Source of the DNA: a virus
Taxonomy: Duplodnaviria; Heunggongvirae; Uroviricota; Caudoviricetes
Direction: 5' to 3' (one strand)
DNA length: 25,434 bases
Virus record (IMG/VR): IMGVR_UViG_2681813267_000002
Under the pieces are notes generated by a model, which was not told where the DNA came from, ran no database searches, and saw only the letters and a program-made list of their open reading frames with translations. The position numbers were made by a program, and so were the translations under genes. Position 1 is the first letter of the stretch; each line of letters opens with the position of its first letter. Shown piece after piece: positions 5,538 through 25,434 of the stretch.

Positions 5538-6837
5538 TCTCCCGCATATTGCCAGCATGGCTTTTAATGAGCCGCTGATGCTTGAACCCGCCTATGCGCG
5601 GGTTTTCTTTTGTGCGCTTGCAGGCCAGCTTGGGATCAGCTGCCTGACGGATGCAGTATCCGGCGACAGCCTGACTGCCGGAGAGGCACCCGCGGCGCTG
5701 GCGTTATCCGGTGATGATGACGGACCACGACAGGCCCGCAGTTATCAGGTAATGAACGGCATCGCCGTGCTGCCGGTGTCCGGCACGCTGGTCAGCCGGA
5801 CGCGGGCGCTGCAGCCGTACTCGGGGATGACCGGTTACAACGGCATTATCGCCCGTCTGCAACAGGCTGCCAGCGACCCGATGGTGGACGGCATTCTGCT
5901 CGATATGGACACACCGGGCGGAATGGTGGCGGGAGCATTTGACTGCGCTGACATCATCGCCCGTGTGCGTGACATAAAGCCGGTATGGGCGCTGGCCAAT
6001 GACATGAACTGCAGCGCAGGTCAGCTGCTTGCCAGTGCCGCCTCCCGGCGTCTGGTCACGCAGACCGCCCGGACAGGCTCCATCGGCGTCATGATGGCTC
6101 ACAGTAATTACGGCGCTGCACTGGAGAAACAGGGCGTGGAAATCACGCTGATTTACAGCGGCAGCCATAAGGTGGATGGCAACCCCTACAGCCATCTACC
6201 GGATGATGTCCGGGAAACATTGCAGTCCCGGATGGATGCAACCCGCCGGATGTTTGCACAGAAGGTGTCGGCATATACCGGCCTGTCCGTGCAGGCTGTG
6301 CTGGATACCGAGGCTGCAGTGTACAGCGGTCAGGAGGCCATTGATGCCGGACTGGCTGATGAACTTGTTAACAGTACCGATGCGATCACCGTCATGCGTG
6401 ATGCACTGGATGCACGTAAATCCCGTCTCTCAGGAGGGCGAATGACCAAAGAGACTCAATCAACAACTGTTTCAGCCACTGCTTCGCAGGCTGACGTTAC
6501 TGGCGTGGTGCAAGCGACGGAGGGCGAGAACGCCAGCGCGGCGCAGCCGGACGTGAACGCGCAGATCACCGCAGCGGTTGCGGCAGAAAACAGTCGCATT
6601 ATGGGGATCCTCAACTGTGAGGAGGCTCACGGACGCGAAGAACAGGCACGCGTGCTGGCCGAAACCCCCGGTATGACCGTGGAAACGGCCCGCCGTATTC
6701 TGGCCGCAGCACCACAGAGTGCACAGACGCGCAGTGACACTGCGCTGGATCGTCTGATGCAGGGGGCACCGGCACCGCTGGCTGCAGGTAACCCGGCATC
6801 TGATGCCGTTAACGATTTGCTGAACACACCAGTGTAA
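5518..6837 (+). CDS. C: Head maturation protease / scaffold C (439 aa from a GTG start)
   Basis: The listed ORF (5383..6837) contains the lambda gpC N-terminus (TAELRNLPHIASMAFNEPLMLEPAYARVFF...) from the in-frame GTG at 5518, preceded by GAGGAGGAG. The S49/ClpP-like protease core is apparent. Overlaps the 3' end of B. Confidence 0.93.
6232..6837 (+). CDS. nu3: Scaffolding protein Nu3 (in-frame internal start within C)
   Basis: In-frame ATG at 6232 (RMDATRRMFAQKVSAY...) at the position homologous to lambda nu3; shares the C reading frame and stop. Called by lambda homology only. Confidence 0.7.
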   Translation: MDATRRMFAQKVSAYTGLSVQAVLDTEAAVYSGQEAIDAGLADELVNSTDAITVMRDALDARKSRLSGGRMTKETQSTTVSATASQADVTGVVQATEGENASAAQPDVNAQITAAVAAENSRIMGILNCEEAHGREEQARVLAETPGMTVETARRILAAAPQSAQTRSDTALDRLMQGAPAPLAAGNPASDAVNDLLNTPV

Positions 6838-16602: not shown

Positions 16603-20256
<3,654 letters not shown>

Positions 20257-20326: not shown

Positions 20327-20843
20327 ATGCGTAAAGTTTGTGCAGCCATTTTGTCCGCAGCCATCTGTCTGGCCGTATCCGGTGCGCCTGCATGGGCGTC
20401 TGAACATCAGTCCACGCTGAGCGCGGGGTATCTTCATGCCCGGACCAACGTTCCCGGCAGTGATGATCTGAACGGGATTAACGTGAAATACCGTTATGAG
20501 TTTACGGATACGCTGGGGCTGGTGACGTCATTCAGCTATGCAGGAGACAAGAATCGCCAGCTGACCCGTTACAGCGATACCCGCTGGCATGAAGATTCCG
20601 TGCGTAACCGCTGGTTCAGCGTGATGGCGGGGCCGTCTGTGCGCGTGAATGAATGGTTCAGCGCGTATGCGATGGCGGGTGTGGCTTACAGCCGTGTGTC
20701 GACTTTTTCCGGGGATTATATCCGCGTAACTGACAATAAGGGGAAAACGCACGATGTGCTGACCGGAAGTGATGACGGTCGCCACAGCAACACGTCTCTG
20801 GCGCACTGACGGTTTCATCGTGGGTGTCGGTTATAAATTCTGA
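20327..20843 (+). pseudogene. lom: lom-like outer membrane protein gene (Ail/Lom family) with a frameshifted 3' end
   Basis: Has its own Shine-Dalgarno (GAGAGG) and a signal-peptide-like N-terminus (MRKVCAAILSAAICLAVSGAPAWA). The frame stops at 20809 after 160 aa, but the +1 frame continues as LWRTDGFIVGVGYKF* to 20843, which is the expected C-terminal beta-strand with terminal Phe. Confidence 0.6.
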
Positions 20844-23900: not shown

Positions 23901-23991
23901 ACATGGACACACCATCACCGTTAACGCTGCTGGTAACGCGGAAAACACCGTCAAAAACATCGCATTTAACTATATTGTGAGGCTCGCATAA
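20908..23991 (+). CDS. stf: Side tail fibre protein Stf (long, apparently intact)
   Basis: Begins [26 protein letters not shown]... at the ATG at 20908; the ORF-track start is an upstream GTG at 20902. Long Ala/Ser/Thr-rich repetitive shaft, tandem fibre repeats and a His-rich C-terminal domain with HxH motifs. About 1027 aa. Confidence 0.93.
22303..22515 (+). repeat. Tandem 44-aa (132-bp) tail-fibre repeat units within stf
   Basis: [27 protein letters not shown] at 22303..22383 and [27 protein letters not shown] at 22435..22515; this is the recurring phage tail-fibre repeat motif. Confidence 0.85.
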
Positions 23992-24572
23992 TGGCATTCA
24001 GAATGAGTGAACAAGCACGGACCATAAAAATTTATAACCTGCTGGCCGGAACTAATGAATTTATTGGTGAAGGTGACGCATATATTCCGCCTCATACAGG
24101 TCTGCCTGCAAACAGTACCGATATTGCACCGCCAGATATTCCGGCTGGTTTCGTGGCTGTTTTCAACAGTGATGAGTCATCGTGGCATCTCGTTGAAGAT
24201 CATCGGGGTAAAACGGTTTATGACGTGGCTTCCGGCGACGCGTTATTTATTTCTGAACTCGGCTCATTACCGGAAAATGTCACCTGGTTATCCCCGGAAG
24301 GGGAGTTTCAGAAGTGGAACGGCACAGCCTGGGTGAAGGATACGGAAGCAGAAAAACTGTTCCGGATCCGGGAGGCGGAAGAAACAAAAAACAGCCTGAT
24401 GCAGGTAGCCAGTGAGCATATAGCGCCGCTTCAGGATGCTGTGGATCTGGAGATCGCAACGGAGAAAGAAACCTTGTTGCTGGAAGCTTGGAAAAAGTAT
24501 CGGGTGTTGCTGAACCGTGTTGATACATCAACTGCACCGGATATTGAATGGCCAGTAGCACCTATAGGGTAA
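23991..24572 (+). CDS. tfa: Tail fibre assembly protein (chaperone) Tfa
   Basis: 193 aa ([54 protein letters not shown]...) matches lambda Tfa closely; start overlaps the stf stop (TAATG). Confidence 0.95.
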
Positions 24573-24655
24573 ATTCGTAATGATTACCTAAATACGTTAT
24601 TCTTTTGTTAAAAAAGTGATTTTGCTATAGGTAGGGAGTATGTTCTTGGATTAAG

Positions 24656-24689
24656 AATAAAAAATCGCCATGAAAGAGCTTCATGGCGA
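24656..24689 (-). terminator. Rho-independent terminator oriented for leftward (minus-strand) transcription
   Basis: Perfect 10-bp inverted repeat TCGCCATGAA-agagc-TTCATGGCGA at 24665..24689, preceded on the + strand by AATAAAAAA, which is a T tract after the hairpin on the minus strand. There is no T tract on the + side. Confidence 0.7.
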
Positions 24690-24809
24690 GTACATAAACG
24701 TACAAAATGTGATGAAAGTAGAGTGGCGTAAGCCACTATATTAAGATATGACAATAGCGAAGAAAAGTAAATAACATTTTATGGACGTTTAATTGTTAAT
24801 TATAAAAAN

Positions 24810-25184
24810 NNNNNNNNNNNNNNNNNNNNNNNNNNNNNNNNNNNNNNNNNNNNNNNNNNNNNNNNNNNNNNNNNNNNNNNNNNNNNNNNNNNNNNNNNNN
24901 NNNNNNNNNNNNNNNNNNNNNNNNNNNNNNNNNNNNNNNNNNNNNNNNNNNNNNNNNNNNNNNNNNNNNNNNNNNNNNNNNNNNNNNNNNNNNNNNNNNN
25001 NNNNNNNNNNNNNNNNNNNNNNNNNNNNNNNNNNNNNNNNNNNNNNNNNNNNNNNNNNNNNNNNNNNNNNNNNNNNNNNNNNNNNNNNNNNNNNNNNNNN
25101 NNNNNNNNNNNNNNNNNNNNNNNNNNNNNNNNNNNNNNNNNNNNNNNNNNNNNNNNNNNNNNNNNNNNNNNNNNNNNNNNNNNN
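24810..25184. other. Run of 375 undetermined bases (assembly gap or masked segment)
   Basis: Literal N characters; the flanking DNA on both sides is very AT-rich. Confidence 1.
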
Positions 25185-25386
25185 GAATTAAATTACATTT
25201 GCAATAATTAATTTATTATTACTCAATAATTACCGATATTATTATTGTAAATTAATCATTAGAATGCAAAAAGAAATGTAACGGCAAAATAAGAGGACGA
25301 TAGCTGAGAAAAAAGCGTGCTTTCCCAATCTGGGGCAAATCACGTCTGAATGACACCTGAAAACAGGTGGTAGCCTCAAGAAGGCT

Positions 25387-25434
25387 GGTGATGCTGCCAA
25401 CTTACTGATTTAGTGTATGATGGTGTTTTTGAGG
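25387..25434 (+). mobile_element. IS1 insertion sequence, left terminal inverted repeat and first 48 bp (truncated by the window end)
   Basis: GGTGATGCTGCCAACTTACTGATTTAGTGTATGATGGTGTTTTTGAGG matches the IS1 left end as I recall it (23-bp terminal repeat GGTGATGCTGCCAACTTACTGAT followed by the insA leader). Confidence 0.88.

Follow-up and report, generated by a model that had tools for sequence, protein, structure and literature searches.

The morons of lambdoid phages, a concept of Hendrix and colleagues exemplified by lom and bor of lambda, are extra genes with their own terminators, located between or after the late genes; they are atypical in composition, patchily present among related phages, and plausibly expressed from the prophage. 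The type I toxins Hok, Ldr, TisB, and Ibs/ShoB are small hydrophobic membrane peptides that depolarise the membrane, and are often found on mobile elements.

YncL of E. coli K-12 (b4598; 31 aa, MNVSSRTVVLINFFAAVGLFTLISMRFGWFI) is a small inner-membrane protein with a single hydrophobic helix, encoded on the chromosome between patD and ortT. Expression of yncL goes up in minimal medium and on heat shock; when the protein is produced, the membrane depolarises to a sublethal degree, the phage-shock response is triggered, the nucleoid condenses, viability falls, and cells shift towards a silent state (PMC12542507). YncL is cleaved in vivo by RseP, alongside the Hok toxins (PMC10470546). In Salmonella, where its expression is sigma-S dependent, yncL was originally listed as an sRNA, STnc1110; like YohP/STnc1330, it is a short transcript once thought to be non-coding that encodes a hydrophobic peptide of about 30 aa (PMC5437024).

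The window analysed here (25,434 nt, IMG/VR record IMGVR_UViG_2681813267_000002) is the right arm of a lambdoid prophage, with J, lom, stf, and tfa. The segment following tfa is interrupted by a run of N, within which an initial annotation had proposed a hidden accessory gene on the minus strand. Relatives with identical flanks do have a minus-strand ORF there, although it specifies a 33-aa peptide (ORF33) rather than the product of a sizeable gene. Comparison with these relatives makes it likely that the gap holds a leftward unit of the moron type, encoding ORF33 as a YncL-like membrane peptide and terminated by a hairpin that is visible in the window.

The segment after tfa

The tail fibre assembly gene tfa (23991..24572, plus strand; 193 aa) is the last late gene before the segment; a 98.8%-identical region is so annotated in RefSeq genomes. 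As the initial annotation stated, the DNA that follows is AT-rich: GC content is 29.7% at 24573-24808 and 21.6% at 25185-25300, against 55-56% in the tail genes. The same annotation saw no ORF in the determined sequence after tfa; ORFs of 34-52 codons do exist there, and are taken up below.

Two observations concern the late genes themselves. Rfam family RF02111 ("IS009") has a full-length match at 24334-24532 on the plus strand (218 bits, against a gathering score of 117); since this match falls wholly inside the tfa ORF, what the family models seems to be conserved coding sequence of prophage tfa genes rather than a distinct RNA gene. The lom ORF (20327-20809) specifies 160 aa, compared to 199 aa in relatives; near window position 20804 it lacks about 83 nt, and with them the C-terminal strands of the Ail/Lom barrel, through either a real deletion or an assembly error.

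Directly after tfa comes a lineage-variable spacer (24573..24654), outside the conserved module described below: it is identical at 51/77 positions in a copy found beside sitDCBA (L008), compared to 95-100% in the module. It is followed by an intrinsic terminator of the leftward unit (24655..24689, minus strand), whose stem runs from 24689 to 24665 and whose U tract runs from 24664 to 24655. The stem has 11 pairs, five of them G-C, with 3 nt in the loop, and TTTTTTATTC comes after it. No other terminator-like site occurs in 24400-25434, a region for which shuffled sequences give 0.4 +/- 0.7, and the terminator is present in all 44 distinct copies examined; the leftward terminator of the initial annotation is thus borne out. 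Among these copies the stem changes only at its terminal pair, and at the loop-adjacent G-U pair, which becomes A-U in the lineage of L008 and the more divergent L029; this last pair lies just outside the ten pairs taken in by the count of stem conservation.

Between terminator and gap lies what would be the part of the hidden gene's 3′ UTR that can be seen in the window (24690..24808, minus strand). It includes a conserved small hairpin, GUGGC-UUAC-GCCAC (24722-24737), with pairs that are invariant or changed only to wobble. The minus strand of 24651-24808 as a whole folds with -35.3 kcal/mol, compared to -15.5 +/- 2.8 for shuffled sequences (z = -7.0). A long-range stem proposed from this fold was rejected, as compensatory changes are lacking and its pairing is disrupted in L029. 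In the leftward direction from 24808, each of the three minus-strand frames reaches a stop codon within 18 nt (UUU UUA UAA; UUU UAU AAU UAA; UUU AUA AUU AAC AAU UAA), as had been reported. The conclusion once drawn from this, that a leftward gene would end at about 24790..24809, does not fit the relatives, in which the ORF33 stop codon falls about 30 nt inside the gap and 24655-24808 holds 3′ UTR and terminator.

To the right of the gap, the conserved module ends within ten nucleotides (25185..25194), where column conservation in the alignment falls from ~0.86 to ~0.6, at about position 6830 of the closest relative (L001). A very AT-rich spacer of 107 nt follows (25195..25301, ~22% GC), which occurs only in the AraC/lambda attachment site context; it folds no better than shuffled sequences (z = 0.2 and -2.0), and has a single 12-nt inverted repeat. 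The initial annotation had called the stretch 25185-25300 promoter-like, but its four sigma-70-like sites are a chance number (2.8 +/- 1.7 in shuffles). Nor does it suit as the promoter region of the gene, as the module ends at ~25194 and the only candidate promoter is inside the gap.

More than 500 genomes have the next 85 nt (25302..25386) by themselves, at the far right ends of other lambdoid prophages. In intact phages these 85 nt continue into the last 62 nt of the tRNA-Ser gene serU (62/62 identical), and after this fragment into ~277 nt of the chromosome downstream of serU; the junction carried by phages ev099, mEp332, and PhiR70_1 accordingly comprises ~195 nt of phage arm, 62 nt of serU, and ~277 nt of chromosome. 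In ev099 this junction (L003 5665-6199, 535 nt) matches the prophage/serU/yodB junction of strains SMS-3-5 and AREA_505 with 97% identity. By this match, 25302-25386 is assigned as the left 85 nt of a fossil attR arm that stems from a lambdoid prophage integrating at serU. The three phages carry the arm inside their accessory region, and in the window IS1 has truncated it. The fossil junction is host DNA captured by a phage. The window itself ends 48 nt into an IS1A element, with its left terminal inverted repeat and first bases at 25387..25434 (plus strand); the same junction runs into an annotated IS1A transposase gene in L001 and a second relative (L002). The IS1A of L001 (7023-7790) has no target-site duplication, and its two sides correspond to ev099 positions 5749 and ~6302, from which it follows that about 550 nt, including the serU fragment, were deleted beside it. 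The minus strand of the fossil arm also has a hairpin (ACGUG...CACGC, at ~25308-25345) followed by UUUUUU, possibly an additional, weaker terminator of leftward transcription at the former prophage end; the hairpin was missed by the terminator scan, and its fold has a z of only about -1.8.

The scaffold gap and its content in relatives

The N run reported after tfa exists, although it comprises 376 N beginning at 24809 (24809..25184, placed on the minus strand), as counted in the window, and not 375 beginning at 24810. It had been read as a mask of true length. The one other N run of the scaffold, 72 N within gene J (18942-19013), argues against this. Both sides of the J gap carry the same 81 nt (78/81 identical), and anchors separated by 349 nt in eight relatives have 502 nt between them in the window, the excess being exactly the 72 N plus the 81 duplicated bases. 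As the contig ends overlap here by 81 nt, the N runs are scaffolder gaps, and 376 is a mere estimate: N-run lengths in this scaffold are unreliable, and not a length-true mask. One by-product of the J gap is the artefactual duplication of 25 residues at 18861-19094, which are present once in relatives; the three mismatches between the 81-nt copies suggest that reads from two prophage copies of J were mixed.

The sequence missing after tfa can be read from relatives. In the closest of these (L001), which is identical to the window at 236/236 positions of the left flank and 208/210 of the right, the flanks are separated by 311 nt (L001 6510-6820), most likely the true length of the fill. Left flank, fill, and right flank are contiguous in 280 complete E. 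coli genomes, and the window-specific right flank is found in 273. These 280 genomes all have 311 nt at this position, as do three viable lambdoid phages with the same flanks; in each of the 44 distinct copies the fill is likewise 311 nt long, free of large insertions or deletions. At least 80% of the fill query is covered in 811 of the 813 genomes that have the module. In practice, then, the standard fill is present in every genome sharing the window's context. Relatives allow the N runs of this scaffold to be filled with confidence.

From left to right, the fill of relatives consists of the last ~29 nt of the 3′ UTR, ORF33 (102 nt with its stop codon), a leader of ~27 nt, a candidate promoter, and ~120 nt of conserved upstream sequence. 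Projected onto the window, ORF33 would occupy 24838-24939 if measured from the left edge of the gap, or 24903-25004 from its right edge. Since the gap bases are absent from the window, we infer the presence of ORF33 in this particular strain from its relatives; it is very likely.

The block from ~24655 to ~25194 is 95-100% identical in three different settings: beside IS1 and AraC at the lambda attachment site by ybhB-bioA; beside a 65-aa ORF and a truncated ydfJ, at the Qin position; and beside sitDCBA, where the sequence diverges on both sides of the block. Its identity across three cargo contexts indicates a unit that travels with the tail-fibre end, and therefore independently of the cargo. 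The AT-rich unit (ORF33, a 3′ UTR of ~150 nt from the ORF33 stop to the terminator, and the terminator) is about 475 nt long. The module has a GC content of ~30%, compared to 55%, and is found in 813 of 5426 complete E. coli genomes, but in only 4 of 50,697 phage records; DNA-anchor and protein-pattern scans showed it to be absent from all species-representative genomes. In these collections no relatives were found outside E. coli strain-level accessory DNA. In the Qin context, a 65-aa hypothetical protein (WP_001421370.1 / WP_000348576.1) is encoded on the minus strand ~250 nt beyond the right edge of the module, immediately preceding the truncated ydfJ (L006 3113-3310, L007 3115-3312, L009 2937-3134).

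The phages ev099 (L003), PhiR70_1 (L004), and mEp332, all viable, have about 1.5 kb between tfa and the next gene on which their annotations agree, an AraC-family regulator. Within this spacer the annotations disagree. PhiR70_1 lists the 37-aa ORF37 (L004 5399-5512, minus strand), which is broken in several related copies, and ev099 an ORF of 55 aa (L003 5615-5782, minus strand); neither lists ORF33, and the third record has no ORF there at all. ORF33 was likewise not annotated in the other records inspected; RefSeq annotates nothing in the fill, and no gene caller or curated phage family lists it. Gene callers systematically miss small membrane proteins, of which ORF33 would be a conserved example in E. 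coli prophages. Widespread in E. coli prophages, the hidden element amounts to a modest annotation gap and does not represent a novel type of system. As the unit follows tfa beside three different cargos, its assignment to the slot where lambdoid phages carry b-region and moron genes holds up; the segment after tfa is best explained as the start of the prophage accessory (b-region) DNA, with the ORF33 unit as its first element.

Coding evidence for ORF33 and its similarity to YncL

In the fill of relatives, the minus strand has an ORF of 33 codons, MKIQSKLIVLLNIIIAFILFELLAQKFGLSTLF, which is intact in every full copy. Its coding statistics come mainly from one divergent copy (L029, 85% identical) and one lineage (that of L008, in the sit context). 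L029 differs from L001 at 18 positions of ORF33 (sd = 11, nd = 7; pS = 0.56, pN = 0.088), 10 of them at third codon positions and one at a second. Compared to the commonest ORF33 variant it has 19 substitutions, which change five codons and introduce no stop; in simulations with 19 random substitutions, five or fewer altered codons together with the absence of a stop had a probability of 3e-5. The L008 lineage adds four further synonymous changes, against one non-synonymous. From this codon pattern, the simulation, and the intactness of the ORF in full copies, ORF33 may be taken with little doubt as a real protein-coding gene.

The other ORFs considered as candidates were rejected. ORF37 (L001 6785 to 6672) is broken in several copies and ORF48 (24754 to 24608) interrupted in several related ones, by lost starts, stops, or frameshifts, while ORF52, to the right of the gap, reads into the IS1 end and so cannot be a conserved gene.

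BLASTP and HMM searches, which the initial annotation had recommended for any ORF recovered from the gap, were run on the ORF33 of relatives and led to YncL. In NCBIfam the peptide has a single match, NF000537 ("stress response membrane protein YncL"), to which the common variant aligns from residue 1 to 28 (model positions 1-28 of 30; E = 1.3e-5, 25.0 bits) and the L029 variant with 23.5 bits. By BLASTP, 11 of 28 residues are identical to K-12 YncL (39%) and 18 of 28 positive, in an ungapped alignment with a pairwise E of 2e-7; none of ten shuffled peptides that kept the composition of N-terminus, helix, and C-terminus matched YncL. ORF33 has a GRAVY of 1.5, and a best 19-residue hydropathy of 2.54, compared to 2.15 for YncL. 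Both variants fall below the NF000537 equivalog cutoff of 35 bits, which would account for the absence of the gene from PGAP calls.

Beyond this match, Pfam, PHROGs, and PADLOC gave no family for the peptide, and the exact sequence occurs only twice, unnamed, among ~15 billion predicted proteins. At the DNA level no similarity to the yncL locus is detectable; a likeness of the yncL and ORF33 promoter regions that was apparent by eye was not significant (P = 0.29 and 0.77). No intermediates between ORF33 and YncL were found in the viral or species-representative collections, and a literature search for the peptide and hairpin sequences found no paper. It is nonetheless quite likely, from the protein comparison, that ORF33 is a homologue of YncL. 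With scores below the equivalog cutoff it is filed as YncL-like and not as YncL, and thus as an apparently distinct, prophage-borne paralogue.

The K-12 yncL gene has a Shine-Dalgarno sequence, AAAGGTGG. In contrast, there is no Shine-Dalgarno-like purine run within 15 nt of the ORF33 ATG in either L001 or L029 (...CAGTATTCCGAAATG), and ORF33 would presumably be translated without one.

Proposed role, alternatives, and comparison with known systems

Within the gap, some 28 nt ahead of the ORF33 start codon, TTGACT-17-TATTGT is a candidate promoter for the unit, with a -35 element that is kept in L029; it is one of four consensus promoter sites, a chance number (4.1 in shuffled sequences). Transcription from this site would yield a leftward mRNA of ~310 nt, composed in order of a short leader, ORF33, a 3′ UTR of ~150 nt with its small hairpin, and the terminator. 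Such an mRNA would be unable to read into tfa, the terminator at 24689 to 24665 stopping leftward transcription before it could run antisense into that gene. By analogy with YncL, the single-pass peptide would insert in the inner membrane of the lysogen and lower the membrane potential when made, a role in host physiology or conversion and not a virion function. The chances that ORF33 does modulate the membrane potential of the lysogen seem, on this analogy, about even.

Three other explanations were weighed. The gap of this strain might hold something other than the standard fill, such as a rearrangement, a variant 65 nt longer, or a disrupted gene: its estimated length is 376 N compared to 311 nt in relatives, the assembly did break there, and rare copies are truncated by IS elements (e.g., L009 and L044). 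However, the gap lengths of this scaffold are demonstrably unreliable, an estimate of 376 nt is too small for an IS element, both flanks abut the fill exactly as in the 280 genomes, and coverage of the fill query reaches 80% or more in 811 of the 813; the break itself may plausibly have come from poor short-read coverage at ~27-30% GC. A non-standard fill thus seems highly improbable. The conserved unit could also be a non-coding RNA (a prophage sRNA, or one derived from the 3′ end), with ORF33 untranslated. The missing Shine-Dalgarno sequence points this way, as do the folding of the visible 3′ region far better than shuffles (z = -7.0) and the conservation of the last ~90 nt, the best-conserved part even in the divergent copy. 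A minus-strand TATAAT at 24804 to 24799 (TACAAT in L029) could start an RNA of ~140 nt, and there is the precedent of the Salmonella yncL locus, catalogued first as STnc1110 (PMC5437024). Against this, the codon-position pattern and synonymous excess in ORF33 would be unexpected (P = 3e-5), the long-range stem lacks compensatory changes and is broken in L029, and the conservation of the 3′ end is partly ascertainment bias, as the DNA anchor came from there. Nothing in the segment reaches an Rfam gathering threshold: a candidate resembling the sRNA MicC scored far below it (22.8-23.8 bits, compared to 90; E = 0.8-1.0), mainly on account of the terminator, and was rejected. An untranslated ORF33 is therefore quite unlikely, while an sRNA derived from the 3′ end could exist in addition to a coding ORF33.

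Finally, ORF33 might be the toxin of a module resembling type I toxin-antitoxin systems, with an antisense RNA restraining a peptide for killing or addiction. Being small and hydrophobic, with one helix (GRAVY 1.5), and encoded on a mobile element, it would suit such a role; when its relative YncL is produced, the membrane depolarises and viability falls (PMC12542507), and YncL is handled in vivo by RseP alongside the Hok toxins (PMC10470546). Against this, the opposite strand has no convincing promoter (its ATGACA-18-TAACAT is at chance level, and altered in L029) and no terminator overlapping ORF33. The long structured 5′ leader usual for type I toxin mRNAs is also lacking, PADLOC and Pfam gave no match, and the reported effect of YncL is sublethal. 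A toxin of this type is accordingly very improbable.

The preferred reading remains a leftward, moron-type unit that encodes a YncL-like peptide. A phage-borne YncL-like copy would be a plausible route for prophages to modulate host stress physiology. One extension, speculative and rather unlikely, is that a family of lambdoid phages has built a lysogenic-conversion device from a YncL-type peptide, with a dual function in which the 3′ end of the transcript, unusually conserved and structured, might also act in trans as an sRNA. If this were true, effects on host dormancy or tolerance, superinfection exclusion, or abortive infection would come into consideration, and about 15% of E. coli genomes would carry a dual-function micro-moron invisible to current annotation.

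Of the described systems, YncL is the most similar. It is like ORF33 in size class and in having a single hydrophobic helix; the alignment is collinear, with M1, S5, L10, N12, A16, L19, F20, L22, F27, and G28 shared, and both appear as small stand-alone transcription units with a short leader. The C-terminal tails differ (GLSTLF in the 33-aa ORF33, GWFI in YncL), as do the locations: K-12 yncL is chromosomal, between patD and ortT, whereas ORF33 is always found after tfa, at the prophage end. The Salmonella transcripts STnc1110 and STnc1330 share with ORF33 the same annotation blind spot, but are chromosomal and sigma-S dependent, while ORF33 is prophage-borne and its transcript predicted. Hok, Ldr, TisB, and Ibs/ShoB resemble ORF33 as small hydrophobic peptides, but for ORF33 no antisense partner was found, nor their characteristic leader, nor a match to them in sequence or model. 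In genomic arrangement ORF33 resembles the lambdoid morons. Like them, the ORF33 unit is an extra gene with its own terminator, located after the late genes, atypical in composition, patchily present among related phages, and plausibly expressed from the prophage; it differs from the classical examples in the far smaller size of its product, in a promoter of its own that is a candidate only, and in being transcribed opposite to the late operon.
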